Shown one piece after another: positions 2,549 to 35,628 of a stretch of 64,000 nucleotides of DNA. The notes beneath the pieces were generated by a model. The model saw nothing but the letters and a program-made list of their open reading frames with translations, did not search any database and was not told the DNA's origin. Source of the stretch: Mayamaea pseudoterrestris (taxonomy: Eukaryota); contig BROI01000011.1 of the NCBI GenBank assembly GCA_027923505.1, positions 1 to 64,000 of the forward strand, in the 5' to 3' direction. The position numbers and the translations under genes were made by a program. Each line of letters begins with the position of its first letter. Position 1 is the first letter of the stretch.

Positions 2549-2563
2549 GATTAACAGTCTTGC
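2549..2563 (+). promoter_or_regulatory. Putative primer-binding site complementary to a tRNA-Asn(GUU) anticodon arm
   Basis: GATTAACAGTCTTGC directly abuts the LTR end; its reverse complement GCAAGA-CTGTTAA-TC reads as an anticodon stem plus CU-GUU-AA loop. Confidence 0.6.
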
Positions 2564-2767: not shown

Positions 2768-4249
2768 ATGGTTGCGATTACTGCGGAAGCTTTGCAGCTT
2801 CTCTGCACGAACGTTTTCGGACGAGACATCCAAGAAGCGTTCTTGTTTTGGAATGTAACCACCACTACCCAGATGTTGAGATTGACCAAGGAGCAACTTG
2901 AAGCCCCCTACTGGGTCGACAGAGCCGCCATCCAAGCTGGCGTTGGACAACCTGAAGGCGCGCAACCCGACGATGCGCCCGGCGACGAGCCGGCCGAGGA
3001 ACCGGCCGAGGAACAAGCAGCCGCCGCCCCAGAACGATACGAAACGACACTAGCACCAGTCTACGTGAACCTTGTCCTCGATGCATGCGAATGGTTTACC
3101 ATGCACGACGGACCCCCGAACACCAAGAAGTGGGCGTTGCTTGATTTAGGCAAGCTCGAGCGATACCAAGCGATTCTCGCGGAACAAGAAATCGCGCGGA
3201 AGCGTGAAGAAGGATACTATGTACTCGAGTCCAAGAAGAAGCAAGCCGAGCTACTTGCCAAGCAACTCGAAAATGAGACCATCAAGGCTGAGAAGGCCGA
3301 AAAGGAAGAAGATGCCAAGGGTCGTTTCTCGAACCTCAAGACGAAACGAGACTATAAGGACTACAAAACGTTCCAACATCCCCACGCGTGGTTGAGTTGG
3401 AGCGCGTCTACCAAGGCAATCGCCAAGCTCCATGGCTGTTCTAACGTGCTCGACAGCAAGTACGTACCAGTCACGGAAGAAGAGAAATTAGAATTCGAGA
3501 ATCAGCAAGTCTTCATGTACACTGCGTTTCGCAATTGTCTCGAAGTCCCTGGACACCAGTCGCTCCTGATGAAGTACGGCGACAAGTCTGACGCTCAAGG
3601 CGTCTATCGCGAACTCGCGACCAAGTTTGGTTCCGGCGAGTTAGCTACCATCCAAGCGAACGAACTGCAAGCCAAGCTTGCGACGATTCGCCTAGATTCG
3701 ACCTGGACGAAAGGACACTACAAGTTCCTAAACTACATCGAACAGCTCATGAAGAATCTCGAAGAGTTCCGTCCTGGAGTGACGGATGACAAGAAAAAGT
3801 ACTACTGGCTCCGAGCTGCAGTGGAAGGCGACGAAGAATTCGGCCCCACATGCACGACGTTCGACCAGCACTTGCAATTTGAACGACGACGCATCATCAG
3901 TGCAAATGGTGACCCAGACGCCGTCGTGACGGAAGATTATGACTGTCTTTTCGACATGTTGTCGCAGCAGGCTCTGCGCGTCGACAACAAGAACGCCAAG
4001 TTGAATAAGGGCAAGAAGAACGCCGACCGCCAAGCGAACAACGCGAACACTTCCGGACAAGGACGTGGTAATGGACGCGGTTCCGGTCGTGGCGGAGGAC
4101 GCGGCGGCCAAGGCGGACGCGGCGGTGGACGAGACGGTGGACGCGGTTCCCAAGTGAGCCGTGGTTCCGGAGGACGAGGCGCTTCCGCAACCAGCCACTA
4201 CCAGCCGGTACGCCAAAAGCGCATCGAATCGATCCTGGTGATTATCTGA
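2768..4249 (+). CDS. gag: Copia Gag-like protein with RGG-rich C-terminal region
   Basis: Long ORF from ATG 2768 just after the LTR/PBS; GRGGGRGGQGGRGGGR tract; frame becomes broken between about 4200 and 4610. Confidence 0.75.
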   Translation: MVAITAEALQLLCTNVFGRDIQEAFLFWNVTTTTQMLRLTKEQLEAPYWVDRAAIQAGVGQPEGAQPDDAPGDEPAEEPAEEQAAAAPERYETTLAPVYVNLVLDACEWFTMHDGPPNTKKWALLDLGKLERYQAILAEQEIARKREEGYYVLESKKKQAELLAKQLENETIKAEKAEKEEDAKGRFSNLKTKRDYKDYKTFQHPHAWLSWSASTKAIAKLHGCSNVLDSKYVPVTEEEKLEFENQQVFMYTAFRNCLEVPGHQSLLMKYGDKSDAQGVYRELATKFGSGELATIQANELQAKLATIRLDSTWTKGHYKFLNYIEQLMKNLEEFRPGVTDDKKKYYWLRAAVEGDEEFGPTCTTFDQHLQFERRRIISANGDPDAVVTEDYDCLFDMLSQQALRVDNKNAKLNKGKKNADRQANNANTSGQGRGNGRGSGRGGGRGGQGGRGGGRDGGRGSQVSRGSGGRGASATSHYQPVRQKRIESILVII

Positions 4250-4607: not shown

Positions 4608-7600
4608 ATGGTATCGGTGCGCTACACTGTGAATCGAGCTCGCAGCAACGAGACCCGCCAAGGATCGCTGATTGACGGCGGTGCGAACGGTGGACTCGCT
4701 GGAAGCGATATGAGAATCTTGAGTACTACCAACCACACGTGTAACGTGACAGGTTTGAGCGACCACACGGTTCGCGACCTCCAAGTCGGAACTGGCGTCG
4801 CATTGATTGAGACTCGGACTGGACCCATTATCGGTCAGTTCAACCAGTATGCTTTGTACGACGGTGCTGAATCCATTCATGCACCATCGCAGCTTCGTTC
4901 GTTCGGCCATCTGATCGACGACGTTGCTCGCTCCCAGAATGGAACACAAGCCATTGTCACCAGTTGTGGCAAGACCATCCCCTTGGCGATCCGCGACGGT
5001 TTGCCTCGAATGGATATGCGTCCGCCGACGGACGCAGAGTTGGAAATGTATCCGACGGTCATTTTCTCTGCGGACACCCTTTGGGATCCGGCGGACTTGG
5101 ACAATGAATGGAACGAAGAAGAACTTGAGTTTAATCGTCACCTCGACGAATTGGAAGAAACCCATGGTTTCGTCGACGCCCGCATGGATGACTTCGGCGA
5201 CGCCACCTACCGGAACAACATGAATTCAGTGGAACGTGTGGTGCAGTATGTCGATCGCAATCAGGCTGATACGACGCGCCAAGCCAATGCACGACGCATA
5301 ATGCCACAAGAACCTGACTACCAAGCGCTTCGACCCTACCTTGGCTACACGCCACTTGAACGAGTCAAGCGCACCATTAAGAATACGACACAGCTTTTCC
5401 GTGCATCGGCACACACCCCATTTCGCCAACACTTTAAGTCGCGATTCCCTGCCGCCAATGTGGTTCGTTTCCATGACGATACGGCGACAGATACCTGGTT
5501 TTCCAAGGAAGCTGCCTTTAACGACGGAATCCGCGGCCATGGCGGATGCAAGATGATGCAACTGTTCGTCGGCAAGAAGAGTCTGCTGACGAGGGGATAC
5601 CCACTGAGAACCGAGAGTGACATGCCCATGGCGCTCGAAGACTTCATTCGAGACATTGGCGCTCCCGACTTGCTCATTAGCGATAACTCGCGAGTGCAGC
5701 TCGGGAAGCAAGTTGAAACCTTGTTGCGATTCTACGCGATTCGTGACCAACAGAGCGAGCCCGGATACCAGAACCAGAACCCTGCCGAGCGTCGCATCCA
5801 AGAAGTCAAGTCATCAGTCCAGAACATCATGAACCGTACGGGCGCACCCGCTGGAGCCTGGCTCCTATGCGCGCTGTACGTAATCGCCTTATTCAACAAT
5901 CTGGCGACCGAGTCCCTCAACTGGAAGACCCCTACTGAAGCCGCCTTCAACCGAGTACCCGACATTTCGCCGTTCCTGCAGTTCAAGTTCTGGGAACGAG
6001 TCCTGTACGAGGCTGGAGCCGACGAGCCGCCGACATTTCCTCACACCAAGGAAGCAGCAGGACGCTGGGTCGGCATTGCAGAGAACAAGGGTGACATCCT
6101 CACGTACCAAGTTCGATCCGATCGGACTGGAATGGTTGTCGTCCGATCCAACGTTCGTCCCTTCTCCGAAGGACGTAACCTACGCGCTGAAGCTGAAAGC
6201 GCTCCTGAACCCGAGTCCGAACGACCACTGTTCGCGGAACCTGTCTTCGACGCGCGCCCTGCGCGTGAACGAGTCCAAGTTGAAACTGTCGACGAGTTTG
6301 ACGACGAATATGACCTAGTCGGTCCGGTGTTTGAACACGACCTTACACCGACCCCAGCGCCTGATTCTGGGGGAACCGTGGATGAAGACGCATTCACGTT
6401 GGAAAGCGCTGCCGAGTTAGCCGGTCTGGATCCCGACGGACCCATGCCGTCCTTTACTCCGGCTGAACTGATGGGACGCACTGTCCTTCTTGACGAGGAA
6501 GACGGCTCCACGCGACGTTACAAGGTTATTGAGCAACTAAACGATCGCGATGAAGCCAACCACAAGATTATCAAGTTTCGATTGAGTCTCGGCGACGGCG
6601 ACGTCGACGAACTTATTACCTACAACGAACTAGCCGACCTGTGCGAACGGCAAGATTCTTTACGACTGGGGGACGATGACAACGACGATCAGTACTACAA
6701 GTTTGATTTCATTGACGGACATGAAGGTCCACTGACACAAGCCGACGCTACGTATCGCGGCTCATCCTACAACTTGCTCATCCAATGGGCAAATGGCGAG
6801 AAGACCTGGGAGCCACTCGCATTGATTATCAAGTCCGACCCTGTGACCGTTGCCGAGTATGGCAAGCGCAAGGGCATGCTGGACAAGGATGGATGGAAGC
6901 GTTTGAAGCGCATGGCAGGACGCACTAAATTGTTTAACCGCATGTGCAAGGCTGCAAAGAAGAACCGTGTCCAAGAAGCGCGTTTCAAGTTTGGCGTTCA
7001 AGTTCCTAATACCTGGAAGGAAGCGAACCGCCTCGACGCTGCTAATGGAAACACCCTGTGGGCTGACGCCGTCAAGACTGAGATGGAGCAGCTACACGAG
7101 TACGACACTTTCATCGACAAGGGCATTGGTGCCTTCATGGAAAGTGACTGGAAGCGCATCAACGCGCATCTTGTTTTCGACTGCAAGAACGATCTACGAC
7201 GTAAGGCCCGACTCGTCGCCGGGGGACATCTGACCGCTCCGCCCAAGGACTCCGCCTACTCCGGCGTTGTATCTATGCGAAGCATCCGAACCATAGCACT
7301 GTTAGCTGAACTGAACGACCTCAAGTTTTGGGCTGCCGATGTCGGTAACGCCTACCTCGAGGCCAAGACCAAGGAAAAGGTCTACATTGTTGCCGGTCCC
7401 GAGTTTGGACCATTGGAAGGCCATACCTTGGTCATCTACAAGGCACTATACGGATTGCGCACTTCTGGCGCGCGTTGGCATGAGCACTTTGCCGACACAC
7501 TCCGCGACATTGGATTCTACCCAAGCTACGCGGATCCTGACGTCTGGATGAAAGACTGTGGCACTCACTACGAGTACGTCGGCGTGTTCGTCGACGATCT

Positions 7601-8015
7601 GGCTATGGCCATGAAAGATCCACAAGCCTTCACGGACCTCCTCAAAGAGAAGTACAAGTACAAGTTGAAGGGCGTCGGCGACATCAAGTATCACCTTGGA
7701 GCCGACTTCTATCGTGATCCCGATGGAACCCTCTGCATGAGCGCAAAGACCTACGTCGGTCGCATGCTCAAGAACTACGAGACCATGTTTGGCGAGAAGC
7801 CACGCAAGCGCAAGTCACCGCTTGACGACGGGGACCACCCCGAACTTGACCTTACCGAAGAGCTGGATGCCCGTGGCATTCAACAGTACCAGTCTCTTAT
7901 CGGTGCCCTCCAGTGGGCAGTGACCCTATGTCGACTTGACATTCCTTGTACCGTGCTGACACTTGGCCGATTCCGCTGCGCTCCGCTGCCAAGCTGCGGT
8001 ACCGGACCTGATTGA
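4608..8015 (+). CDS. pol: Copia Pol: aspartic protease, integrase, chromodomain-like region, reverse transcriptase (C-terminus disrupted)
   Basis: LIDGGANGG protease; TATD...SDNS...NPAERRI integrase DDE; KARLVAGG, ADVGNAYL, KALYGL and VFVDDL RT motifs. Confidence 0.93.
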   Translation: MVSVRYTVNRARSNETRQGSLIDGGANGGLAGSDMRILSTTNHTCNVTGLSDHTVRDLQVGTGVALIETRTGPIIGQFNQYALYDGAESIHAPSQLRSFGHLIDDVARSQNGTQAIVTSCGKTIPLAIRDGLPRMDMRPPTDAELEMYPTVIFSADTLWDPADLDNEWNEEELEFNRHLDELEETHGFVDARMDDFGDATYRNNMNSVERVVQYVDRNQADTTRQANARRIMPQEPDYQALRPYLGYTPLERVKRTIKNTTQLFRASAHTPFRQHFKSRFPAANVVRFHDDTATDTWFSKEAAFNDGIRGHGGCKMMQLFVGKKSLLTRGYPLRTESDMPMALEDFIRDIGAPDLLISDNSRVQLGKQVETLLRFYAIRDQQSEPGYQNQNPAERRIQEVKSSVQNIMNRTGAPAGAWLLCALYVIALFNNLATESLNWKTPTEAAFNRVPDISPFLQFKFWERVLYEAGADEPPTFPHTKEAAGRWVGIAENKGDILTYQVRSDRTGMVVVRSNVRPFSEGRNLRAEAESAPEPESERPLFAEPVFDARPARERVQVETVDEFDDEYDLVGPVFEHDLTPTPAPDSGGTVDEDAFTLESAAELAGLDPDGPMPSFTPAELMGRTVLLDEEDGSTRRYKVIEQLNDRDEANHKIIKFRLSLGDGDVDELITYNELADLCERQDSLRLGDDDNDDQYYKFDFIDGHEGPLTQADATYRGSSYNLLIQWANGEKTWEPLALIIKSDPVTVAEYGKRKGMLDKDGWKRLKRMAGRTKLFNRMCKAAKKNRVQEARFKFGVQVPNTWKEANRLDAANGNTLWADAVKTEMEQLHEYDTFIDKGIGAFMESDWKRINAHLVFDCKNDLRRKARLVAGGHLTAPPKDSAYSGVVSMRSIRTIALLAELNDLKFWAADVGNAYLEAKTKEKVYIVAGPEFGPLEGHTLVIYKALYGLRTSGARWHEHFADTLRDIGFYPSYADPDVWMKDCGTHYEYVGVFVDDLAMAMKDPQAFTDLLKEKYKYKLKGVGDIKYHLGADFYRDPDGTLCMSAKTYVGRMLKNYETMFGEKPRKRKSPLDDGDHPELDLTEELDARGIQQYQSLIGALQWAVTLCRLDIPCTVLTLGRFRCAPLPSCGTGPD

Positions 8016-8551
8016 CCGGACCAAGCCAAGCGAAGACCCGCGGGCTCGTGCAACTAACTACCTTTATGGACGCGAACCTGTACCATGATTACACTACTGG
8101 ACGTTCCGCAATGGGAGTCCTGCATTTCCTGAACCAGACGCCCGTCGAATGGTTCTGCAAGCGTCAGAATACTGTCGAGACTGCAACGTATGGATCCGAG
8201 TTCGTCGTCGCCAAGACCGCGACGGAACAGATTATGGATTTCCGATACTCCCTACGCATGTTGGGAGTTCCTTTGAGTGGACCAGCCTGGATGTTCGGCG
8301 ACAACGAAAGTGTCAAGAAGTCGTCAACGATCCCGCACTCCACACTTTCTAAGCGACACAATGCGCTCGCCTACCATCGAGTTCGCGAGGCCATTGCAAG
8401 CAATGTTCTGTACTTTGAGCACATCTTCGGCAAGCAGAACGTCGCCGACGTTCTTACCAAGTTCTTGCCGCATGCCACGTTCCGACCCCTGATCATCCCG
8501 ATTCTTTTCTGGAAGGGTGATACGACAAACCGATCGTTGTCACAAGCCTAG
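8012..8551 (+). CDS. Copia RNase H domain (separated from RT by an apparent deletion/frameshift)
   Basis: TFMDANL, QNTVETATYGSEF, FGDN, HRVREA and NVADVLTK motifs; stop at 8549-8551. Confidence 0.9.
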   Translation: MTGPSQAKTRGLVQLTTFMDANLYHDYTTGRSAMGVLHFLNQTPVEWFCKRQNTVETATYGSEFVVAKTATEQIMDFRYSLRMLGVPLSGPAWMFGDNESVKKSSTIPHSTLSKRHNALAYHRVREAIASNVLYFEHIFGKQNVADVLTKFLPHATFRPLIIPILFWKGDTTNRSLSQA

Positions 8552-8554
8552 ATC

Positions 8555-8562
8555 AAGGGGGA
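8555..8562 (+). promoter_or_regulatory. Polypurine tract
   Basis: AAGGGGGA immediately before the TG start of the 3' LTR. Confidence 0.85.
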
Positions 8563-8757
8563 TGACACAATATTATTGAGTTGAGTTGACCTGCGTCTTA
8601 TGACAAGACGGTTAGCTACCTGTGTTTTGTATGCATTTAATCCTGTGCAGGGTTGAGTCACACTTGTGACCGAATCCTCACATACATGAGTGAAATCGCT
8701 GACGATTGAGGCGTGAACCTCGACCGTGAACCCAGTGAGAACGAGAAGGAAGCGCAC
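8563..8757 (+). repeat. 3' LTR, truncated after 195 of 329 bp
   Basis: Matches 2220-2414 except C>T at 8707, then runs into satellite II. Confidence 0.92.
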
Positions 8758-11700
8758 TGCATTATTCTCACTGCCTCACTGCCTCGCTGGAAAAAGTTCC
8801 TCACGTGCCTCACTGGAATTCTCACTGCCTCACTGCAATCCTCACTGCCTCACTGTCTCACTGCCTCACTGCAATTCTCACTGCCTCACTGCAATTCTCA
8901 CTGCCTCACTGCAATCCTCACTGCCTCACTGCCTCACTGCTCACTGCCTCACTGCCTCACTGCAATTCTCACTGCCTCACTGCAATCCTCACTGCCTCAC
9001 TGCAATTCTCACTGCCTCACTGCAATTCTCACTGCCTCACTGCAATCCTCACTGCCTCACTGCAATTCTCACTGCCTCACTGCAATCCTCACTGCCTCAC
9101 TGCCTCACTGCAATTCTCACTGCCTCACTGCAATCCTCACTGCCTCACTGCCTCACTGCAATTCTCACTGCCTCACTGCAATTCTCACTGCCTCACTGCC
9201 TCACTGCCTCACTGCAATCCTCACTGCCCACGCCTCTCCTGCCTCACTGCAACTCCACTGCCTCACCTCACTGCAATCCTCACTGCCTCACTGCCTCACT
9301 GCCTCACTGCAATTCTCACTGCCTCACTGCAATCCTCACTGCCTCACTGCCACACTGCCTCACTGCAATTCTACCGCCCCTCACCTCTCATCCTGCCCAA
9401 CTCACTGCCTCACTGCAATTCTCACTGCAATTCTCACTGCCTCACTGCAATCCTCACTGCCTCACTGCCTCACTGCCTCACTGCAATTCTCACTGCCTCA
9501 CTGCAATCCTCACTGCCTCACTGCAATTCTCACTGCCTCACTGCAATTCTCACTGCCTCACTGCCTCACTGCAATTCTCACTGCCTCACTGCCTCACTGC
9601 AATTCTCACTGCCTCACTGCAATCCTCACTGCGCCTCACGCCTCACTGCATCTCTGCCCTCCTCACTGCCTCACTGCCTCACTGCCTCACTGCCTCACCC
9701 TACTGCAATTCTCACTGCCTCACTGCAATTCTCACTGCCTCACTGCCTCACTGCTTCTCACTGCCTCACTGCAATCCTCACGCCTCACTGCACCTCACTG
9801 CCTCACGCAATTCTCACTGCCTCACTGCCCACCTCACTGCTCTCACTGCCTCACTGCAATCCTCACCTCCCTCCCTCACTGCAATTCTCACTGCCTCACT
9901 GCAATTCTCACTGCCTCACTGCAATTCTCACTGCCTCACTGCAATCCTCACTGCCTCACTGCAATTCTCACTGCCTCACTGCAATCCTCACTGCCTCACT
10001 GCAATTCTCACTGCCTCACTGCAATTCTCACTGCCTCACTGCCTCACTGCAATTCTCACTGCCTCACTGCCTCACTGCCTCACTGCAATTCTCACTGCCT
10101 CACTGCAATCCTCACTGCCTCACTGCAATTCTCACTGCCTCACTGCAATTCTCACTGCCTCACTGCCTCACTGCAATTCTCACTGCCTCACTGCAATCCT
10201 CACTGCCTCACTGCAATTCTCACTGCCTCACTGCAATCCTCACTGCCTCACTGCCTCACTGCCTCACTGCCTCACTGCCTCACTGCAATTCTCACTGCCT
10301 CACTGCCTCACTGCAATTCTCACTGCCTCACTGCCTCACTGCAATCCTCACTGCCTCACTGCAATTCTCACTGCCTCACTGCCTCACTGCCTCACTGCCT
10401 CACTGCAATTCTCACTGCCTCACTGCAATCCTCCCTGCCTCACTGCCTCACTGCCTCACTGCAATTCTCACTGCCTCACTGCCTTTCTCACTGCCTCACT
10501 GCAATTCTCACTGCCTCACTGCAACCCTCCCTGCCTCACTGCCTCACTGCCTCACTGCCTCACTGCCTCACTGCAATCCTCACTGCCTCACTGCAATTCT
10601 CACTGCCTCACTGCAATCCTCACTGCCTCACTGCAATTCTCACTGCCTCACTGCAATCCTCACTGCCTCACTGCCTCACTGCAATTCTCACTGCCTCACT
10701 GCAATCCTCACTGCCTCACTGCAATTCTCACTGCCTCACTGCAATTCTCACTGCCTCACTGCCTCACTGCAATTCTCACTGCCTCACTGCAATTCTCACT
10801 GCCTCACTGCAATTCTCACTGCCTCACTGCCTCACTGCAATTCTCACTGCCTCACTGCAATTCTCACTGCCTCACTGCCTCACTGCCTCACTGCAATTCT
10901 CACTGCCTCACTCACTGCCTCACTCACTGCCTCACTCACTGCCTCACTGCAATCCTCACTGCCTCACTGCAATTCTCACTGCCTCACTGCCTCACTGCAA
11001 TTCTCACTGCCTCACTGCAATTCTCACTGCCTCACTGCCTCACTGCCTCACTGCAATTCTCACTGCCTCACTGCAATCCTCACTGCCTCACTGCAATTCT
11101 CACTGCCTCACTGCAATTCTCACTGCCTCACTGCCTCACTGCAATTCTCACTGCCTCACTGCAATCCTCACTGCCTCACTGCAATTCTCACTGCCTCACT
11201 GCCTCACTGCAATCCTCACTGCCTCACTGCAATTCTCACTGCCTCACTGCAATTCTCACTGCCTCACTGCCTCACTGCAATTCTCACTGCCTCACTGCAA
11301 TTCTCACTGCCTCACTGCCTCACTGCCTCACTGCAATTCTCACTGCCTCACTGCAATCCTCACTGCCTCACTGCAATTCTCACTGCCTCACTGCAATCCT
11401 CACTGCCTCACTGCCTCACTGCAATCCTCACTGCCTCACTGCCTCACTGCAATTCTCACTGCCTCACTGCCTCACTGCCTCACTGCCTCACTGCCTCACT
11501 GCAATTCTCACTGCCTCACTGCAATCCTCACTGCCTCACTGCAATTCTCACTGCCTCACTGCCTCACTGCAATTCTCACTGCCTCACTGCAATCCTCACT
11601 GCCTCACTGCAATTCTCACTGCCTCACTGCAATTCTCACTGCCTCACTGCCTCACTGCCTCACTGCAATTCTCACTGCCTCACTGCAATTCTCACTGCCT

Positions 11701-14700
11701 CACTGCAATTCTCACTGCCTCACTGCAATTCTCACTGCCTCACTGCAATTCTCACTGCCTCACTGCCTCACTGCAATTCTCACTGCCTCACTGCAATCCT
11801 CACTGCCTCACTGCCTCACTGCCTCACTGCAATTCTCACTGCCTCACTGCAATCCTCACTGCCTCACTGCAATTCTCACTGCCTCACTGCAATTCTCACT
11901 GCCTCACTGCCTCACTGCCTCACTGCCTCACTGCCTCACTGCCTCACTGCAATTCTCACTGCCTCACTGCAATCCTCACTGCCTCACTGCAATTCTCACT
12001 GCCTCACTGCAATTCTCACTGCCTCACTGCAATCCTCACTGCCTCACTGCCTCACTGCCTCACTGCAATTCTCACTGCCTCACTGCAATTCTCACTGCCT
12101 CACTGCCTCACTGCAATCCTCACTGCCTCACTGCCTCACTGCCTCACTGCAATTCTCACTGCCTCACTGCCTCACTGCCTCACTGCAATTCTCACTGCCT
12201 CACTGCAATCCTCACTGCCTCACTGCAATTCTCACTGCCTCACTGCAATCCTCACTGCCTCACTGCAATTCTCACTGCCTCACTGCAATTCTCACTGCCT
12301 CACTGCAATTCAAACTGCCTCACTGCAATTCTCACTGCCTCACTGCAATCCTCACTGCCTCACTGCCTCACTGCCTCACTGCAATTCTCACTGCCTCACT
12401 GCAATCCTCACTGCCTCACTGCAATTCTCACTGCCTCACTGCAATTCTCACTGCCTCACTGCAATTCTCACTGCCTCACTGCAATTCTCACTGCCTCACT
12501 GCCTCACTGCAATTCTCACTGCCTCACTGCCATCCTCACTGCCTCACTGCAATTCTCACTGCCTCACTGCAATTCTCACTGCCTCACTGCCTCACTGCAA
12601 TTCTCACTGCCTCACTGCAATCCTCACTGCCTCACTGCAATTCTCACTGCCTCACTGCAATTCTCACTGCCTCACTGCCTCACTGCAATCCTCACTGCCT
12701 CACTGCCTCACTGCAATTCTCACTGCCTCACTGCAATCCTCACTGCCTCACTGCAATTCTCACTGCCTCACTGCAATTCTCACTGCCTCACTGCCTCACT
12801 GCAATTCTCACTGCCTCACTGCAATCCTCACTGCCTCACTGCCTCACTGCAATTCTCACTGCCTCACTGCAATCCTCACTGCCTCACTGCCTCACTGCAA
12901 TTCTCACTGCCTCACTGCCTCACTGCAATTCTCACTGCCTCACTGCAATCCTCACTGCCTCACTGCCTCACTGCCTCACTGCAATTCTCACTGCCTCACT
13001 GCCTCACTGCAATTCTCACTGCCTCACTGCAATCCTCACTGCCTCACTGCAATCCTCACTGCCTCACTGCAATTCTCACTGCCTCACTGCAATTCTCACT
13101 GCCTCACTGCCTCACTGCCTCACTGCAATTCTCACTGCCTCACTGCAATCCTCACTGCCTCACTGCCTCCCTCCCTTCCTCACTGCCTCACTGCCACCCT
13201 CACTGCCTCACTGCAATTCTCACTGCCTCACTGCAATCCTCACTGCCTCACTGCAATTCTCACTGCCTCACTGCAATCCTCACTGCCTCACTGCAATCCT
13301 CACTGCCTCACTGCAATTCTCACTGCCTCACTGCAATTCTCACTGCCTCACTGCAATCCTCACTGCCTCACTGCAATTCTCACTGCCTCACTGCAATCCT
13401 CACTGCCTCACTGCAATCCTCACTGCCTCACTGCAATTCTCACTGCCTCACTGCAATTCTCACTGCCTCACTGCCTCACTGCAATTCTCACTGCCTCACT
13501 GCCTCACTGCCTCACTGCAATACTCACTGCCTCACTGCAATCCTCACTGCCTCACTGCCTCACTGCAATTCTCACTGCCTCACTGCAATCCTCACTGCCT
13601 CACTGCCTCACTGCAATTCTCACTGCCTCACTGCAATCCTCACTGCCTCACTGCAATTCTCACTGCCTCACTGCAATCCTCACTGCCTCACTGCAATTCT
13701 CACTGCCTCACTGCCTCACTGCAATTCTCACTGCCTCACTGCAATTCTCACTGCCTCACTGCAATCCTCACTGCCTCACTGCAATTCTCACTGCCTCACT
13801 GCAATTCTCACTGCCTCACTGCCTCACTGCAATTCTCACTGCCTCACTGCAATCCTCACTGCCTCACTGCCTCACTGCCTCACTGCCTCACTGCAATCCT
13901 CACTGCCTCACTGCCTCACTGCCTCACTGCAATTCTCACTGCCTCACTGCCATTCTCCCTGCCCCCACCTCCTTCACTGCCGTCACCAATCCCTGCCTCA
14001 CTGCCTCACTGCAAAACCCTCACTGCCTCACTGCAATTCTCACTGCCTCACTGCCTCACTGCAATTCTCACTGCCTCACTGCAATCCTCACTGCCTCACT
14101 GCCTCACTGCCTCACTGCAATTCTCACTGCCTCACTGCCATCCTCACTGCCTCACTGCCTCACTGCAATTCTCACTGCCTCACTGCAATCCTCACTGCCT
14201 CACTGCAATTCTCACTGCCTCACTGCAATTCTCACTGCCTCACTGCCTCACTGCCTCACTGCAATTCTCACTGCCTCACTGCAATCCTCACTGCCTCACT
14301 GCAATTCTCACTGCCTCACTGCAATCCTCACTGCCTCACTGCAATTCTCACTGCCTCACTGCAATTCTCACTGCCTCACTGCCTCACTGCAATTCTCACT
14401 GCCTCACTGCCTCACTGCAATTCTCACTGCCTCACTGCAATTCTCACTGCCTCACTGCAATCCTCACTGCCTCACTGCAATTCTCACTGCCTCACTGCAA
14501 TTCTCACTGCCTCACTGCCTCACTGCAATTCTCACTGCCTCACTGCAATTCTCACTGCCTCACTGCCTCACTGCAATTCTCACTGCCTCACTGCAATCCT
14601 CACTGCCTCACTGCCTCACTGCAATTCTCACTGCCTCACTGCAATCCTCACTGCCTCACTGCAATTCTCACTGCCTCACTGCAATTCTCACTGCCTCACT

Positions 14701-15183
14701 GCCTCACTGCAATCCTCACTGCCTCACTGCCTCACTGCCTCACTGCAATCCTCACTGCCTCACTGCAATTCTCACTGCCTCACTGCAATTCTCACTGCCT
14801 CACTGCCTCACTGCAATTCTCACTGCCTCACTGCAATCCTCACTGCCTCACTGCCTCACTGCCTCACTGCAATTCTCACTGCCTCACTGCAATCCTCACT
14901 GCCTCACTGCAATTCTCACTGCCTCACTGCAATTCTCACTGCCTCACTGCCTCACTGCAATTCTCACTGCCTCACTGCAATCCTCACTGCCTCACTGCAT
15001 CACTGCCTCACTGCAATCCTCACTGCCTCACTGCAATTCTCACTGCCTCACTGCAATTCTCACTGCCTCACTGCAATTCTCACTGCCTCACTGCAATCCT
15101 CACTGCCTCACTGCAATTCTCACTGCCTCACTGCAATCCTCACTGCCTCACTGCAATTCTCACTGCCTCACTGCAATTCTCAC
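8758..15183 (+). repeat. Satellite II block 1: irregular array of CTCACTGC / CTCACTGCAATT / CTCACTGCAATC
   Basis: About 6.4 kb built almost entirely from these three words. Confidence 0.98.
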
Positions 15184-24505: not shown

Positions 24506-27500
24506 GAGCATAGAGCCTGAACCTAAGCATGAGCACCTGAGCCTGAGCACCTGAGCCTGAGCCTAACCTGAGCCTGAGCCTAGCCTGAGCCTACCTGAGC
24601 CTACCTGAGCCTAACTGAGCCTAACTGAGCCTAACTGAGCTTACCTGAGCCTACCTGAACCTACCTGGGCCTAACTGAGCCTAACTAACCTCACTGAGCC
24701 TAACTGAGCATAACTGAGCCTAACTGAGCCTGAGACAGAGCATGGAGCATAGAGCCTGAACCTGAGCATGAGCATATGAGCCTGAACCTGAGCATGAGCA
24801 CCTGAGCCTGAGCACCTGAGCCTGGGCACCTGAGCCTGAGCCTAGCCTGAGCCTCACTGAGCCTACCTGAGCCTACCTGAGCCTACCTGAGCCTACCTGA
24901 GCCTAACTGAGCCTAACTAAACCTAACTGAGCCTAACTGAGCCTAACTGAGCCTAACTGTGCCTGAGACTGGGCATGGAGCATAAGAGCCTAACCTGAGC
25001 ACTGAGCTACTGAGCCTGAACCCTAACCTGAGCCTGAGACTGAGCCTGGAGCCTACCTGAGCCTGAACCTGAGCCATGAGCTAACTGAGCCCTGAGCACC
25101 TGAGCCTGGCCTGAGCCTAACTGAGCCTAACTGAGCCTAAGCCCTGAGCCTAACTGAGCACCTGAGCCTACTGAGCCTACCTGAGCCAGACCTACACCCC
25201 CTGAGCCCACCTGAGGCCCTACCTGAGCCCACACTCGAGCCAACACTGAGGCAACTGAGAGCACTAAACAAGGAGCCCCGAGCATGAGCATATGAGCCTG
25301 AGCCTTAACCTGAGCCTGAGACGATGGATAGAGCCTGAACTGGAGCATCAGCACCTGAGCCTGAGCACCTGAGCCTGAGCACCTGAGCCTGAGCCTAGCC
25401 TGAGCCTACCTGAGCCTACCTGAGCCTGCCTGAGCCTACCTGAGCCTACCTGAGCCTAACTGAGCCTAACTGAGCCTAACTGAGCCTGAGACTGAGCATG
25501 GAGCATAGAGCCTGAACCTGAGCATGAGCGTATGAGCCTGATCCTAAGCCTGAGCCTGAGACTGAGCATGGAGCATAGAGCCTGAACCTGAGCATGAGCA
25601 CCTGAGCCTGAGCCTAGCCTGAGCCTAACTGAGCCTACCTGAGCCTACCTGAGCCTACCTGAGCCTACCTGAGCCTAACTGAGCCTAACTGAGCCTGAGA
25701 CTGAGCATGGAGCATAGAGCCTGAACCTGAGCATGAGCATATGAGCCTGAGCCTAAGCCTGAGCCTGAGACTGAGCATGGAGCATAGAGCCTGAACCTGA
25801 GCATGAGCACCTGAGCCTGAGCCTAGCCTGAGCCTAACTGAGCCTACCTGAGCCTAACTGAGCCTACCTGAGCCTACCTGAGCCTAACTGAGCCTAACTG
25901 AGCCTAACTGAGCCTAACTGAGCCTAACTGAGCCTAACTGAGCCTGAGACTGAGCATGGAGCATAGAGCCTGAACCTGAGCATGAGCATGAGCATATGAG
26001 CCTGAGCCTAAGCCTGAGCCTGAGACTGAGCATGGAGCATAGAGCCTGAACCTGAGCATGAGCACCTGAGCATGAGCACCTGAGCCTGAGCACCTGAGCC
26101 TGAGCACCTGAGCCTGAGCCTAACTGAGCCTAACTGAGCCTACCTGAGCCTACCTGAGCCTACCTGAGCCTACCTGAGCCTAACTGAGCCTAACTGAGCC
26201 TAACTGAGCCTGAGACTGAGCATGGAGCATAGAGCCTGAACCTGAGCATGAGCATATGAGCCTGAGCCTAAGCCTAAGCCTGAGCCTGAGACTGAGCATG
26301 GAGCATAGAGCCTGAACCTGAGCATGAGCACCTGAGCCTGAGCACCTGAGCCTGAGCACCTGAGCCTGAGCACCTGAGCCTGAGCACCTGAGCCTGAGCC
26401 TAACTGAGCCTAACTGAGCCTAACTGAGCCTACCTGAGCCTACCTGAGCCTAACTGAGCCTACCTGAGCCTACCTGAGCCTACCTGAGCCTACCTGAGCC
26501 TAACTGAGCCTAACTGAGCCTAACTAAACCTAACTGAGCCTGAGACTGAGCATGGAGCATAGAGCCTGAACCTGAGCATGAGCATATGAGCCTGAGCCTA
26601 AGCCTGAGCCTGAGCCTGAGACTGAGCATGGAGCATTAAGCCTGAACCTGAGCATGAGCACCTGAGCCTGAGCACCTGAGCCTGAGCACCTGAGCCTGAG
26701 CACCTGAGCCTGAGCACCTGAGCCTGAGCCTAGCCTGAGCCTAACTGAGCCTACCTGAGCCTAACTGAGCCTAACTGAGCCTAACTGAGCCTACCTGAGC
26801 CTACCTGAGCCTAACTGAGCCTACCTGAGCCTACCTGAGCCTACCTGAGCCTACCTGAGCCTACCTGAGCCTACATGAGCCTACCTGAGCCTAACTGAGC
26901 ATAACTGAGCCTAACTGAGCCTGAGACTGAGCATGAAGCATAGAGCCTAAACCTGAGCATGAGCATATGAGCCTGAGCCTTAACCTGAGCCTGAGACTGA
27001 GTATAGAGCATAGAGCCTGAACCTGAGCCTGAGCACCTGAGCCTGAGCACCTGAGCCTGAGCCTAGCCTGAGCCTACCTGAGCCTACCTGAGCCTGCCTG
27101 AGCCTACCTGAGCCTACCTGAGCCTAACTGAGCCTAACTGAGCCTAACTGAGCTGGAGCATAGAGCCCGAGCCTGATCCTAAGCCTGAGCCTGAGACTGA
27201 GCATGGAGCATAGAGCCTGAACCTGAGCATGAGCACCTGAGCCTGAGCCTAGCCTGAGCCTAACTGAGCCTACCTGAGCCTACCTGAGCCTACCTGAGCC
27301 TAACTGAGCCTAACTGAGCCTGAGACTGAGCATGGAGCATAGAGCCTGAACCTGAGCATGAGCATATGAGCCTGAGCCTGAGCCTAAGCCTGAGCCTGAG
27401 ACTGAGCATGGAGCATAGAGCCTGAACCTGAGCATGAGCACCTGAGCCTGAGCCTAGCCTGAGCCTAACTGAGCCTACCTGAGCCTAACTGAGCCTACCT

Positions 27501-29248
27501 GAGCCTACCTGAGCCTACCTGAGCCTAACTGAGCCTAACTGAGCCTAACTGAGCCTAACTGAGCTTAACTGAGCCTAACTGAGCCTGAGACTGAGCATGG
27601 AGCATAGAGCCTGAACCTGAGCATGAGCATGAGCATATGAGCCTGAGCCTAAGCCTGAGCCTGAGACTGAGCATGGAGCATAGAGCCTGAACCTGAGCAT
27701 GAGCACCTGAGCCTGAGCACCTGAGCCTGAGCACCTGAGCCTGAGCCTAACTGAGCCTAACTGAGCCTACCTGAGCCTACCTGAGCCTACCTGAGCCTAC
27801 CTGAGCCTAACTGAGCCTAACTGAGCCTAACTGAGCCTAACTGAGCCTGAGACTGAGCATGGAGCATAGAGCCTGAACCTGAGCATGAGCATATGAGCCT
27901 GAGCCTAAGCCTAAGCCTGAGCCTGAGACTGAGCATGGAGCATAGAGCCTGAACCTGAGCATGAGCACCTGAGCCTGAGCACCTGAGCCTGAGCACCTGA
28001 GCCTGAGCACCTGAGCCTGAGCACCTGAGCCTGAGCCTAACTGAGCCTAACTGAGCCTAACTGAGCCTACCTGAGCCTACCTGAGCCTAACTGAGCCTAC
28101 CTGAGCCTACCTGAGCCTACCTGAGCCTAACTGAGCCTAACTGAGCCTAACTAAACCTAACTGAGCCTGAGACTGAGCATGGAGCATAGAGCCTGAACCT
28201 GAGCATGAGCATATGAGCCTGAGCCTAAGCCTGAGCCTGAGCCTGAGACTGAGCATGGAGCATTAAGCCTGAACCTGAGCATGAGCACCTGAGCCTGAGC
28301 ACCTGGCCTGAGCACCTGAGCCTGAGCACCTGAGCCTGAGCACCTGAGCCTGAGCCTAGCCTGAGCCTAACTGAGCCTACCTGAGCCTAACTGAGCCTAA
28401 CTGAGCCTAACTGAGCCTACCTGAGCCTACCTGAGCCTAACTGAGCCTAACTGAGCCTAACTGAGCATAACTGAGCCTAACTGAGCCTGAGACTGAGCAT
28501 GGAGCTTAGAGCCTGAACCTGAACCTGAGCATGAGCCTGAGCCTAAGCCTGAGCCTGAGCCTGAGACTGAGCATGGAGCATAGAGCCTGAACCTGAGCCT
28601 GAGCACCTGAGCCTGAGCACCTGAGCCTGAGTATCTGAGCCTGAGCACCTGAGCCTGAGCCTAGCCTGAGCCTACCTGAGCCTTTCTGAGCCTACCTGAG
28701 CCTACCTGAGCCTAACTGAGCCTAACTAAGCCTAACTGAGCCTAACTGAGCATAACTGAGCTTAACTGAGCCTGAGACTGAGCATGGAGCTTAGAGCCTG
28801 AACCTGAACCTGAGCATGAGCATATGAGCCTGAGCCTAAGCCTGACCCTGAGACTGAGCATGGAGCATAGAGCCTGAACCTGAGCATGAGCACCTGAGCC
28901 TGAGCACCTGAGCCTGAGCACCTGAGCCTGAGCACCTGAGCCTGAGCCTAGCCTGAGCCTAACTGAGCCTACCTGAGCCTACCTGAGCCTAACTGAGCCT
29001 AACTGAGCCTAACTGAGCCTAACTGAGCCTGAGACTGAGCATGGAGCATAGAGCCTGAACCTGAGCATGAGCATATGAGCCTGAGCCTAAGCCTGAGCCT
29101 GAGACTGAGCATGGAGCATAGAGCCTGAACCTGAGCATGAGCACCTGAGCCTGAGCACCTGAGCCTGAGCCTAGCCTGAGCCTAACTGAGCCTACCTGAG
29201 CCTACCTGAGCCTAACGCCTCAGCCTCCACCTGAGCCTCCTCACTGAG
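24506..29248 (+). repeat. Satellite III: GAGCCT / GAGCCTAACT / GAGCCTACCT / GAGCACCT units with a spacer GAGACTGAGCATGGAGCATAGAGCCTGAACCT
   Basis: About 4.7 kb complex array with ~1.6-kb higher-order periodicity. Confidence 0.96.
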
Positions 29249-32200
29249 CTGCAATTCTCACTGCCTCACTGCAATCCTCACTGCCTCACTGCCTCACTGC
29301 CTCACTGCAATTCTCACTGCCTCACTGCAATCCTCACTGCCTCACTGCAATTCTCACTGCCTCACTGCAATTCTCACTGCCTCACTGCCTCACTGCAATT
29401 CTCACTGCCTCACTGCAATCCTCACTGCCTCACTGCCTCACTGCAATCCTCACTGCCTCACTGCCTCACTGCCTCACTGCAATTCTCACTGCCTCACTGC
29501 AATTCTCACTGCCTCACTGCCTCACTGCCTCACTGTCACCCACCTCACTGCCTCACTGCATCCACTGCCCTCACTGCAATCCTCACTGCCTCACTGCAAT
29601 TCTCACTGCCTCACTGCAATTCTCACTGCCTCACTGCCTCACTGCAATTCTCACTGCCTCACTGCAATCCTCACTGCCTCACTGCAATTCTCACTGCCCT
29701 CTCCCCCACTGCAATTCTCACTGCCTCACTGCCTCACTGCAATTCTTCACTGCCTCACTGCAATCCTCACTGCCTCACTGCCTCACTGGCCTCACTGGCC
29801 TAACTGCCTCACTGCCTCACTGCAATTCTCACTGCCTCACTGCCTCACTGCAATCCTCACTGCCTCACTGCCTCACTGCAATTCTCACTGCCTCACTGCA
29901 ATCCTCACTGCCTCACTGCAATTCTCACTGCCTCACTGCCTCACTGCAATTCTCACTGCCTCACTGCAATCCTCACTGCCTCACTGCCTCACTGCCTCAC
30001 TGCCTCACTGCACATGCCTGACCTCATCACCTCAGCCTACACTGCCTCACTGCCTCACCTAGCCTCACTGCCTTGCCTCACTGCAATTCTCACTGCCTCA
30101 CTGCAATTCTCACTGCCTCACTGCCTCACTGCAATTCTCACTGCCTCACTGCAATCCTCACTGCCTCACTGCCTCACTGCCTCCCTCCCTTCCTCACTGC
30201 CTCACTGCAATCCTCACTGCCTCACTGCAATTCTCACTGCCTCACTGCAATTCTCACTGCCTCACTGCCTCACTGCAATTCTCACTGCCTCACTGCAATC
30301 CTCACTGCCTCACTGCCTCACTGCAATTCTCACTGCCTCACTGCAATCCTCACTGCCTCACTGCAATTCTCACTGCCTCACTGCAATTCTCACTGCCTCA
30401 CTGCCTCACTGCAATTCTCACTGCCTCACTGCCTCACTGCCTCACTGCAATTCTCACTGCCTCACTGCAATCCTCACTGCCTCACTGCAATTCTCACTGC
30501 CTCACTGCAATTCTCACTGCCTCACTGCCTCACTGCAATTCTCACTGCCTCACTGCAATTCTCACTGCCTCACTGCCTCACTGCCTCACTGCCTCACTGC
30601 CTCACTGCCTCACTGCCTCACTGCCTCACTGCCTCACTGCAATTCTCACTGCCTCACTGCAATCCTCACTGCCTCACTGCCTCACTGCAATTCTCACTGC
30701 CTCACTGCAATTCTCACTGCCTCACTGCCTCACTGCCATCCTCACTGCCTCACTGCAATCCTCACTGCCTCACTGCCTCACTGCCTCACTGCAATCCTCA
30801 CTGCCTCACTGCAATCCTCACTGCCTCACTGCAATTCTCACTGCCTCACTGCCTCCCTCACTGCCTCACTGCCTCACTGCAATTCTCACTGCCTCACTGC
30901 AATCCTCACTGCCTCACTGCCTTTCTCACTGCCTCACTGCAATTCTCACTGCAATTCTCACTGCCTCACTGCCTCACTGCAATTCTCACTGCCTCACTGC
31001 AATTCTCACTGCAATCCTCACTGCCTCACTGCAATCCTCACTGCCTCACTGCAATTCTCACTGCCTCACTGCAATCCTCACTGCCTCACTGCAATTCTCA
31101 CTGCCTCACTGCAATTCTCACTGCCTCACTGCCTCACTGCCTCACTGCTTCACTGCCTAACTGCCTCACTGCCTCACTGCCTCACTGCCTCACTGCCTCA
31201 CTGCAATTCTCACTGCCTCACTGCAATCCTCACTGCCTCACTGCCATTCTCCCTGCCTCACTGCCTCACTCCCTTCCTCACTGCCTCACTGCCTCACTGC
31301 AATTCTCACTGCCTCACTGCAATCCTCACTGCCTCACTGCATCACTGCCTCACTGCAATTCTCACTGCCTCACTGCAATCCTCACTGCCTCACTGCCTCA
31401 CTGCAATTCTCACTGCCTCACTGCAATTCTCACTGCCTCACTGCAATCCTCACTGCCTCACTGCAATTCTCACTGCCTCACTGCAATCCTCACTGCCTCA
31501 CTGCCTCACTGCCTCACTGCAATTCTCACTGCCTCACTGCAATCCTCACTGCCTCACTGCAATTCTCACTGCCTCACTGCAATTCTCACTGCCTCACTGC
31601 CTCACTGCCTCACTGCAATTCTCACTGCCTCACTGCAATCCTCACTGCCTCACTGCAATTCTCACTGCCTCACTGCAATCCTCACTGCCTCACTGCAATT
31701 CTCACTGCCTCACTGCAATTCTCACTGCCTCACTGCAATCCTCACTGCCTCACTGCAATTCTCACTGCCTCACTGCAATCCTCACTGCCTCACTGCAATT
31801 CTCACTGCCTCACTGCAATTCTCACTGCCTCACTGCCTCACTGCAATTCTCACTGCCTCACTGCAATCCTCACTGCCTCACTGCCTCACTGCCTCACTGC
31901 CTCACTGCCTCACTGCAATTCTCACTGCCTCACTGCCTCACTGCAATTCTCACTGCCTCACTGCAATTCTCACTGCCTCACTGCAATTCTCACTGCCTCA
32001 CTGCATCGCTGCCTCACTGCACTCACTGCCTCACTGCAATCTCACTGCCTCACTGCAATCCTCACTGCCTCACTGCAATTCTCACTGCCTCACTGCCTCA
32101 CTGCAATTCTCACTGCCTCACTGCAATTCACCGCTTCTCACTGCCTCACTGCACTCACTGCCTCACTGCAACTCACTGCCTCACTGCAATTCTCACCGCC

Positions 32201-35200
32201 CACTGCAATTCTCACTGCCTCACTGCCTCACTGCAATCCTTACTGCAATTCTCACTGCCTCACTGCAATCCTCACTGCCTCACTGCAATTCTCACTGCCT
32301 CACTGCAATCCTCACTGCCTCACTGCCTCACTGCCTCACTGCAATTCTCACTGCCTCACTGCAATCCTCACTGCCTCACTGCAATTCTCACTGCCTCACT
32401 GCAATTCTCACTGCCTCACTGCCTCACTGCAATCCTCACTGCCTCACTGCAATTCTCACTGCCTCACTGCAATTCTCACTGCCTCACTGCAATCCTCACT
32501 GCCTCACTGCAATTCTCACTGCCTCACTGCCTCACTGCCTCACTGCCTCACTGCCTCACTGCAATCCTCACTGCCTCACTGCAATTCTCACTGCCTCACT
32601 GCAATTCTCACTGCCTCACTGCAATTCTCACTGCCTCACTGCCTCACTGCAATTCTCACTGCCTCACTGCAATCCTCACTGCCTCACTGCAATCCTCACT
32701 GCCTCACTGCCTCACTGCCTCACTGCAATTCTCACTGCCTCACTGCAATCCTCACTTCACCTCTCCTCCTACTCACCTCTCCCTGCCTCACTGCAATTCT
32801 CACTGCCTCACTGCAATTCTCACTGCCTCACTGCAATCCTCACTGCCTCACTGCCTCACTGCAATTCTCACTGCCTCACTGCATCACTGCCTGTCTCACT
32901 GCCTCACTGCAATTCTCACTGCCTCACTGCAATTCTCACTGCCTCACTGCCTCACTGCAATTCTCACTGCCTCACTGCAATCTCACCCTCACCGCCCACT
33001 GCCTCACTGCCTCACTGCAATTCTCACTGCCTCACTGCAATCCTCACTGCCTCACTGCAATTCTCACTGCCTCACTGCAATGCCTCACTGCAATTCTCAC
33101 TGCCTCACTGCAATCCTCACTGCCTCACTGCCTCACTGCCTCACTGCCTCACTGCAATTCTCACTGCCTCACTGCAATTCTCACTGCCTCACTGCAATTC
33201 TCACTGCCTCACTGCCTCACTGCAATTCTCACTGCCTCACTGCAATTCTCACTGCCTCACTGCCTCACTGACAGTCTCACTGCCTCACTGCAATTCTCAC
33301 TGCCTCACTGCAATCCTCACTGCCTCACTGCAATTCTCACTGCCTCACTGCAATTCTCACTGCCTCACTGCCTCACTGCAATTCTCACTGCCTCACTGCA
33401 ATTCTCACTGCCTCACTGCAATCCTCACTGCCTCACTGCCTCACTGCCTCACTGCAATTCTCACTGCCTCACTGCAATCCTCACTGCCTCACTGCAATTC
33501 TCACTGCCTCACTGCAATTCTCACTGCCTCACTGCCTCACTGCAATCCTCACTGCCTCACTGCAATTCTCACTGCCTCACTGCAATCCTCACTGCCTCAC
33601 TGCCTCACTGCAATTCTCACTGCCTCACTGCAATCCTCACTGCCTCACTGCAATTCTCACTGCCTCACTGCCTCACTGCAATTCTCACTGCCTCACTGCA
33701 ATCCTCACTGCCTCACTGCCTCACTGCCTCACTGCCTCACTGCAATTCTCACTGCCTCACTGCAATCCTCACTGCCTCACTGCAATTCTCACTGCCTCAC
33801 TGCAATTCTCACTGCCTCACTGCCTCACTGCAATTCTCACTGCCTCACTGCAATCCTCACTGCCTCACTGCCTCACTGCAATTCTCACTGCCTCACTGCA
33901 ATCCTCACTGCCTCACTGCAATCCTCACTGCCTCACTGCAATTCTCACTGCCTCACTGCCTCACTGCAATTCTCACTGCCTCACTGCAATCCTCACTGCC
34001 TCACTGCCTCACTGCCTCACTGCCTCACTGCAATTCTCACTGCCTCACTGCAATCCTCACTGCCTCACTGCAATTCTCACTGCCTCACTGCAATTCTCAC
34101 TGCAATTCTCACTGCCTCACTGCAATCCTCACTGCCTCACTGCAATCCTCACTGCCTCACTGCCTCACTGCAATTCTCACTGCCTCACTGCAATTCTCAC
34201 TGCCTCACTGCAATTCTCCCAGTCTCACTGCCTCACTGCAAGCCTCCCTCCCTCACTGCCTCACTGCCTCACTCACTGCCTCACTGCCACCCTCACTGCC
34301 TCACTGCAATCCTCACTGCCTCACTGCCTCACTGCCTCACTGCAATTCTCACTGCCTCACTGCAATTCTCACTGCCTCACTGCAATTCTCACTGCCTCAC
34401 TGCAATTCTCACTGCAATCCTCACTGCCTCACTGCAATCCTCACTGCCTCACTGCAATTCTCACTGCCTCACTTCCTCCCTGCAATGCCTGCGCAATTCT
34501 CACTGCCTCACTGCAATCCTCACTGCCTCACTGCCACACTGCCTCACTGCAATTCTCACTGCCTCACTGCAATCCTCACTGCCTCACTGCAATTCTCACT
34601 GCCTCACTGCAATTCTCACCACTGCAATTCTCACTGCCTCACTGCCTCACTGCCTCACTGCAATCCTCACTGCCTCACTGCCTCACTGCCTCACTGCAAT
34701 CCTCACTGCCTCACTGCCTCACTGCAATTCTCACTGCCTCACTGCAATTCTCACTGCCTCACTGCCTCACTGCAATTCTCACTGCCTCACTGCAATCCTC
34801 ACTGCCTCACTGCAATTCTCACTGCCTCACTGCAATTCTCACTGCCTCACTGCCTCACTGCAATTCTCACTGCCTCACTGCAATCCTCACTGCCTCACTG
34901 CCTCACTGCCTCACTGCAATTCTCACTGCCTCACTGCAATTCTCACTGCCTCACTGCAATTCTCACTGCCTCACTGCCTCACTGCAATTCTCACTGCCTC
35001 ACTGCAATTCTCACTGACTCACTGCCTCACTGCAATTCTCACTGCCTCACTGCAATCCTCACTGCCTCACTGCAATCCTCACTGCCTCACTGCAATCCTC
35101 ACTGCCTCACTGCAATTCTCACTGCCTCACTGCAATTCTCACTGCCTCACTGCAATCCTCACTGCCTCACTGCAATTCTCACTGCCTCACTGCAATTCTC

Positions 35201-35628
35201 ACTGCCTCACTGCAATCCTCACTGCCTCACTGCAATTCTCACTGCCTCACTGCAATCCTCACTGCCTCAGCTCCTCACTGCCTCACTCACACTGCCATCA
35301 CTGCTTCTCACTGCCTCACTGCAATTCTCACTGCCTCACTGCAATTCTCACTGCTCCGCAATCCCTCACTGCCTCACTGCCTCACTGCAACCACTGCCTC
35401 ACTGCCCACTCACACTCCTCCCTGGACTCACTGCCTCACTGCAATTCCTCACTGCACTGCCACACTGCAATTCTCACTGCCTCACTGCCTCACTGCAATT
35501 TCACTCACTGCAACTCCCTCACTGCCTCACTGCAATCCTACCCCCCTGCCTCACTGCCTCCACACCCACTGCCTCACTGCCTCACTGCAATTCTCACTGC
35601 CTCACTGCACATCTCACTGCCTCACTGC
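29249..35628 (+). repeat. Satellite II block 2
   Basis: Same three-word array and orientation as block 1, about 6.4 kb. Confidence 0.97.

Follow-up and report, generated by a model that had tools for sequence, protein, structure and literature searches.

Which RNA starts reverse transcription in an LTR retrotransposon whose 5' LTR is not followed by the usual TGG? The question is raised by a Copia element situated some 2 kb inside a chromosome end, in the 64,000-nt stretch of DNA analyzed here (the window), which begins with a telomere repeat. The initial annotation had read the LTR end GTGTCA as running directly into GATTAACAGTCTTGC without a TGG, and direct reading gives the same arrangement, with GTGTCA at 2543-2548, GATTAACAGTCTTGC at 2549-2563, and no TGG in the first 30 nt past the 5' LTR. 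It had further proposed that these nucleotides pair with an internal segment of tRNA-Asn(GUU), in the geometry used by copia and Ty5. The structural, comparative and literature evidence presented here suggests that reverse transcription in this Copia lineage is probably primed by a fragment of tRNA-Asn.

Structure of the Copia element

Judged by its sequence, the element is a subtelomeric and now defective Ty1/copia-type LTR retrotransposon of the diatom kind, present in one copy in the window. It has inserted into a subtelomeric satellite (170-2219, unstranded; period 352 and sub-period 180 in the repeat analysis), which follows an unstranded (CCCTAA)n telomere repeat at positions 1-168 (period 6, 27 copies, 100% matches). 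All parts of the element lie on the + strand. Its 329-nt 5' LTR, TGACAC...GTGTCA (2220-2548), is delimited by a direct repeat, a terminal inverted repeat and the terminus consensus of the family. The 3' LTR (8563-8757), recognized as a direct repeat of the 5' LTR, retains 195 nt and is cut by a 20-bp satellite array (8755-15183). The two copies start at T2220 (TGACAC...) and T8563, and are 99% identical over 195 nt (2220-2414 versus 8563-8757). Because the 3' LTR is broken off at 8757, the 5-bp target duplication is unreadable and the LTR pair alone cannot fix the 3' end of the LTR. The end at 2548 was placed by the terminal inverted repeat TGACAC/GTGTCA, which by reading matches at 12 of 15 positions, and by a terminus common to relatives (T-T-R-T-Y-A). 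A polypurine tract, AAGGGGGA (8555-8562), was read from the sequence directly 5' of the 3' LTR, such that LTRs with TG...CA ends and a polypurine tract are both present, as in Ty1/copia.

Between the LTRs, a gag reading frame (2768-4249) is supported at 3068-4045 by homology to relatives' Gag part, and a Pfam search of this frame returned no match. The pol reading frame (4608-8015; protease, putative integrase and RT) lies in a different frame from gag, with homology in frame 2 over 4626-7985. It has 331 homologues and carries, at residues 846-1058 (about nt 7143-7781), an RVT_2 reverse transcriptase domain, recognized as PF07727 with E 1.5e-25 and a score of 90.7 bits where the cut-off is 31.6. 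Upstream of this domain, ~840 residues are conserved with relatives; an integrase family search of the window pol gave no match reaching E 0.01, and in the homologue P0021 a precomputed PF00665 is listed ahead of PF07727. The C-terminal RNase H part of pol forms a third reading segment (8012-8551), identified by comparison with P0001, the best homologue (57% identity over pol). Just one homologue carries the name of an organism, a protein from the diatom Mayamaea pseudoterrestris that is 50% identical.

Compared with P0001, the window copy changes frame between gag and pol and lacks ~130 nt at 7986-8047, where no more than 62 nt stand opposite residues 1727-1790 of P0001. On the evidence of its frames and LTRs the copy is young but dead, broken in gag-pol and in the 3' LTR, such that its primer site would be a recent relic without current autonomous use.

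A match to the anticodon arm of tRNA-Asn(GUU)

The site that follows the 5' LTR, GATTAACAGTCTTG (2549-2562), is the complement of tRNA-Asn(GUU) positions 27-40. In tRNA terms it takes in the anticodon stem's 5' strand and the complete loop, and reaches two bases into the 3' strand. Its assignment as the primer binding site draws on natural tRNA-Asn arms, on conservation in relatives, and on the LTR boundary in two related loci (L141 and L148). A generic test for half-tRNA geometry, which asks for an A in front, for N-Y-N-N-N-A-R as the complement of the loop and for two base pairs of the stem closing that loop, gave a single match in the region 2220-2800, at 2549. A tRNA gene search of the window found none.

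Natural genes with this arm are found in viral contigs. The exact 15-mer occurs at 98 places in IMG/VR, and 32 of these are tRNA-Asn(gtt) genes identified by ARAGORN, representing 11 distinct tRNAs which, coming from viral contigs, may not be diatom genes. The 15-mer is always antisense in them, at positions 26-40 counted from the anticodon, beginning one base before the anticodon stem and ending two bases into the 3' strand; it is followed by TTG in every case, closing a CAAGA/TCTTG stem. Positions 30-40 of the tRNA (GA, the loop CUGUUAA, UC) are moreover common to tRNA-Asn genes with three different stems, namely those of L217, of L229 and of the viral set. Of the other 66 places, six (L099-L104) share a flank and have the 15-mer inside a replicase frame, and were set aside as coincidence, leaving 60 more. 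The gene content of these six contigs (maturation, coat, replicase) resembles that of single-stranded RNA phages.

A random sequence behind the LTR might also come to resemble an anticodon arm by chance. The window contains a single copy of the 15-mer and, with up to two mismatches allowed, 17 of 100 shuffled windows hold at least one match to it somewhere, so that its occurrence alone is weak evidence. Chance must, however, account for an exact match at the sole position where a primer binding site must be, and for the recurrence of the site in 48 of 78 relatives with a strict strand bias (see below). Given the relatives' counts and the natural tRNA-Asn arms, we reject a chance likeness, which has hardly any probability left.

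Conservation of the site among relatives

We examined the conservation of the site in metagenomic relatives of the Pol protein, using 78 related loci taken from metagenome contigs by alignment of 47 sequences. Coding-strand copies of the 9-mer GATTAACAG were found in 48 of these loci. Over 465,172 nt there were 52 coding-strand matches and 2 on the other strand, whereas 200 permuted 9-mers averaged 2.0 matches and reached 15 at most. The base before the 9-mer is A in all 52 matches, and the next two bases are TC in 49 and TT in 3. The matches lie either 1.7-3.1 kb 5' of pol or 0.9-1.4 kb beyond the point where the pol match ends (2.1 kb in one case), the latter in contigs that run pol-LTR-site, where the motif again comes after an LTR; the one exception, L181, has it within a disrupted pol match. 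In L141 and L148, one copy of a repeated LTR stops exactly before the 9-mer and the other copy before a flank unrelated to it, which fixes the LTR end without recourse to the motif. Together with the identical natural arms, this conservation bears out the proposal that the site pairs with an internal segment of tRNA-Asn(GUU) in the geometry of copia and Ty5.

To define the extent of the site, matches were collapsed to 38 non-redundant contexts, the window included. Site positions 1-11 are near invariant, and this extends to two positions outside the search motif, with T at position 10 in 38/38 contexts and C at position 11 in 35/38; the T at position 11 in the other three would mean that A30 and C40 of the tRNA are mismatched, unless a G-U pair forms with the primer. 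At positions 12-14 there are a few classes (GCA in 10 contexts, TCG in 7, ACA in 5, TTG in 5, GTA in 5, others in 6), the window belonging to the TTG class. From position 15 onward conservation is nil, stopping at the base of the anticodon stem, and we accordingly take the functional site to be 14 nt long. The pairing of 15 nt originally proposed thus holds for its 14 conserved positions (2549-2562, tRNA 27-40), while position 15, the pair with G26, is variable in relatives; C2563 of the window copy could add this 15th pair.

The Asn-type site is present in all major subclades of the 103-row Pol ingroup, including beside the branch of the window element (FastTree, 107 RT segments). Of the 30 loci without the 9-mer, 12 are too short (less than 1.6 kb upstream and less than 0.9 kb downstream of the pol match). 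The 18 such loci among the 66 that are long enough consist of L121, which has a Lys-type site, L126, whose site is one base longer, and 16 others, which include a 9-row clade without any Asn-type site. Among loci from 'bacterial' metagenome-assembled genomes (MAGs), only 8 of 34 have the site, and many of these contigs are short.

The latter group (L183-L216) comprises diatom-type Copia contigs in MAGs labelled bacteria or archaea, with 14 of the 34 loci coming from one Sphingobacteriaceae MAG and one 266-kb contig from a Methanotrichaceae MAG; eukaryotic contamination of the bins is the most likely source. Viral contigs, searched with a single protein, yielded no Pol relatives. Many metagenome contigs of these elements (L106, L120, L121, L124, L126, L137, L142, L145, L149, L159, L180 and others) have identical overlaps of 91-127 nt at both contig ends, i.e. 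assembled as circles, which fits LTR collapse, tandem copies or one-LTR circles.

A conserved block at this place might instead be an RNA element that acts in cis and has nothing to do with tRNA, for example a signal for packaging or dimerisation, a GalEa-like hairpin or a Tf1-like self-priming sequence, with the likeness to tRNA-Asn being incidental. Precedents have been described, as fungal GalEa Copia elements are reported to have a conserved hairpin for a primer site and Tf1 to prime itself (PMC5445492), and the primer of the present element is a predicted one. Yet the block equals real tRNA-Asn arms letter for letter, is not palindromic, unlike the GalEa hairpin, and loses its conservation exactly at the base of the anticodon stem. 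One relative has switched to a real tRNA-Lys(UUU) arm (L121), and another extends the site into the complement of a tRNA D-arm stretch (L108; both described below). Furthermore, no stretch of 7 nt or more in the LTR is complementary to the site, and none of the 48 loci has a complementary 9-mer on its coding strand, which excludes Tf1-type self-priming at that length. We consider a cis element of this kind very unlikely.

Variable stems and variant sites

While the loop complement hardly varies, the stem classes differ among relatives, which could also be expected if the site were a relic unmatched to the tRNA-Asn of the host, for instance after horizontal arrival, in a family unable to prime here. 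That the window copy is defective agrees with such a history. Against it stands the 99% identity of the LTR copies over their common 195 nt, which we take as a sign of recent insertion by a working priming step. The TCTTG class of the window also recurs in 5 of 38 independent contexts and in 5/5 element contigs of one bin (G001), despite their differing LTR ends, and we regard a relic of this kind as highly improbable. A second bin, G002, holds two stem classes together. The bins with element contigs (G001-G010) yielded tRNA-Asn genes only in L217 and L229, which have arms unfit for the sites and are taken to be bacterial; a gtt call in L231, from the same bins, is without the 11-mer, and a tRNA gene search of the 78 metagenome loci found none.

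Complementarity can reach further into the tRNA. In L108 (4731-4753) it covers 23 contiguous nt, GATTAACAGTCGCAAGCTCTAAC, running into the complement of the D-arm stretch GTTAGAGC, which L217 and L229 have in their tRNA-Asn genes. An extension matching at 8 of 8 D-arm positions was seen in 1 of 50 contexts, that of L108, and suggests that the tRNA concerned has a D-arm of another type than that of L024 (100-225), a tRNA-Asn gene with the same arm on a viral contig. Contigs of four sequencing runs that contain the element (X1, X3, X4, X5) gave no match to this gene at 80% likeness, a negative of no weight either way.

The identity of the tRNA can change as well. Past the LTR end of L121 (318-331) stands GATTAAAAGTCTGG, which has the same geometry with one loop base changed; of 119 viral loci, 43 are tRNA-Lys(ttt) genes whose arm is complementary to this 14-mer. 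This looks like a switch of primer from Asn(GUU) to Lys(UUU) through one loop base. Two unrelated elements, in L126 (~92-115) and L188 (~5487-5510), have TTGACA followed by GATTAACAAGTCTTG, with an extra A in the loop complement, a form that could correspond to a bulged pairing or to a tRNA with an unusual loop.

Relation to known half-tRNA primers

Half-tRNA priming is an established mode of Copia elements, known as the hemivirus type (PMC5371799, PMC6317226, PMC8515867). As reported for Drosophila copia and yeast Ty5, the site in the window adjoins the 5' LTR and complements the anticodon stem-loop rather than the 3' end of a tRNA (PMC5371799, PMC8515867). The primer of copia and Ty5 is a 5' tRNA fragment, for Ty5 reportedly produced by internal cleavage of tRNA-iMet (PMC5371799, PMC8515867); a like fragment is deduced here from the site. 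Unlike these two elements, which use initiator Met, the window element matches tRNA-Asn(GUU). In a published scheme, copia-like hemiviruses branch apart from diatom Copia (PMC2774666).

Non-initiator primers of this type have been described elsewhere. The closest in letters is FunCo1 of filamentous ascomycetes, whose site ATTAAGAGTCT is reported to complement an internal region of tRNA-Lys (PMC5445492). It is one letter apart from window positions 2550-2560, ATTAACAGTCT, the difference lying in the anticodon complement. FunCo1 has a Lys(CUU) site and fungal hosts, unlike the window element with its Asn(GUU) site, a comparison made by site letters. Another Copia case uses a segment from within tRNA-Arg(UCU) (PMC4139406), likewise a non-initiator primer, with both the tRNA and the host kingdom differing from those here. 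A survey of plant Copia lineages gives half tRNA-Ile for Bianca and half tRNA-Met for Osser, Bryco and Gymco-II, describes half-molecule primers as confined to Ty1/copia lineages, and treats primer type as characteristic of the lineage (PMC6317226). Within that survey's account tRNA-Asn is confined to sites of the 3'-end type, in 2% of elements, and is never a half molecule (PMC6317226).

The description of the primer as unusual therefore needs qualification. The use of tRNA-Asn in this role appears to be new, but half or internal primers other than iMet are already in print for Ile (PMC6317226), Arg(UCU) (PMC4139406) and Lys (PMC5445492). The CoDi elements (Maumus et al. 2009, PMC2806351) are likewise diatom Copia, the likeness of the window element to diatom elements being drawn through the one homologue, 50% identical, that is named to a diatom. 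The CoDi paper's main text does not contain the word 'tRNA', and uses 'PBS' only for a buffer (PMC2806351). The literature searched, which excluded Repbase, GyDB and subscription journals, contains no description of a half-tRNA-Asn site or of any diatom Copia primer site. By this comparison of sites, the mechanism is an established one and the tRNA a new one, and the combination is widespread in a diatom-type Copia lineage. tRNA-Asn would thereby join the short list of half-molecule Copia primers, as a lineage-wide trait and more than a one-off. Filtering of LTR candidates by primer site has been described for LTRharvest/LTRdigest (PMC7466962), and pipelines that keep only sites for tRNA 3' ends can be expected to miss or discard the family.

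A model for priming by a tRNA-Asn fragment

The complementarity to tRNA-Asn, the exact position of the site, its lineage-wide conservation and the exclusion of self-priming are what the sequences show, and on these we chart a model of how priming would proceed. A 5' fragment of tRNA-Asn of ~40 nt, ending at C40, would anneal to the site, and its 3'-OH would prime minus-strand strong-stop DNA, as the tRNA-iMet fragment does in copia and Ty5. The model presumes a CAAGA stem in the host tRNA-Asn, a fragment whose end is at position 40, and a nuclease that makes it. Overall, we think it likely that this is a defective diatom-type Copia element whose site after U5 pairs with tRNA-Asn(GUU) 27-40 and that a 5' fragment of ~40 nt serves as the primer.

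The tRNA-Asn sequence might also pair as described while belonging to a primer other than a 5' half ending at C40, such as a whole tRNA with a nick, a tRNA that is still a precursor or was misprocessed, or a different small RNA with the same arm. A site placed directly at the LTR end merely needs a 3'-OH opposite G2549, which any of these might supply. On the other side, conservation starts exactly at the complement of position 40 in 38/38 contexts, which points to a fixed primer 3' end, and the primer of copia and Ty5 is reported to be an internally cleaved fragment of the initiator tRNA (PMC5371799), a point that bears on the present element by analogy only. We judge a primer of another form to be quite unlikely, if somewhat less so than a cis element or a relic.

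Under the fragment model, the primer would be recopied by the plus strand in each cycle, such that the site tracks the tRNA of the host. Recopying of this kind would explain why the core (tRNA 30-40) is invariant while three bases (tRNA 27-29) vary, and it is possible that each site has been matched to, or recopied from, the tRNA-Asn of its own host. The single stem class of G001, the D-arm extension of L108 and the Lys switch of L121 all fit such recopying, whereas the two classes together in G002 run contrary to it. The invariant core and variable stem offer a natural experiment on the recopying of a site from its primer.

The model also names a specific 40-nt tRNA fragment for diatom small-RNA data. 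Table S3 of a Phaeodactylum study lists Asn-GTT fragments by counts only, with no sequences and no 5'-half pattern flagged there (PMC4247016), and speaks neither for nor against the model. The diatom Copia element Blackbeard has been reported to show stress-induced activation (PMC2806351). The suggestion that tRNA cleavage controls mobilisation is speculation. A far-reaching version would hold that a widespread lineage is primed by a C40-cut 5' fragment of tRNA-Asn(GUU), that its 14-nt site co-evolves with the anticodon stem of the host and sometimes jumps to tRNA-Lys(UUU), that production of the fragment, beyond transcription, limits mobilisation, and that stress activation acts partly via tRNA processing; we find this version as a whole unlikely.

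The surrounding chromosome end

The end of the chromosome is built of repeats (window 1-40238). The telomere is followed by the 352-bp satellite (170-2219), the Copia element, and the 20-bp satellite CTCACTGCCTCACTGCAATT (8755-15183). After this first 20-bp array comes a GC-rich stretch with ORFs repeating at a spacing of 3405 nt (~18.0-24.2 kb), for which a Pfam search gave zero matches. Further inward, an array of the hexamer GAGCCT (24513-29238) is followed by a second stretch of the 20-bp satellite (29249-35628) and then one of the 352-bp satellite (35633-40238), so that the repeats are nested around the centre of 1-40238 in a roughly mirror-like layout.

The 352-bp satellite, which recurs in the window at 35633-40238, has a sub-period of 180 bp in both arrays (170-2219 and 35633-40238). 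This can be set beside small RNAs of 25-30 nt in Phaeodactylum, for which an unexplained 180-nt periodicity has been reported at highly methylated regions (PMC4247016). Beyond the repeats, the window carries three intron-free host genes on the - strand, encoding a Toprim-like domain protein (49817-51601), a type I phosphomannose isomerase (52667-54040) and an FAD-dependent oxidoreductase (58687-60066).
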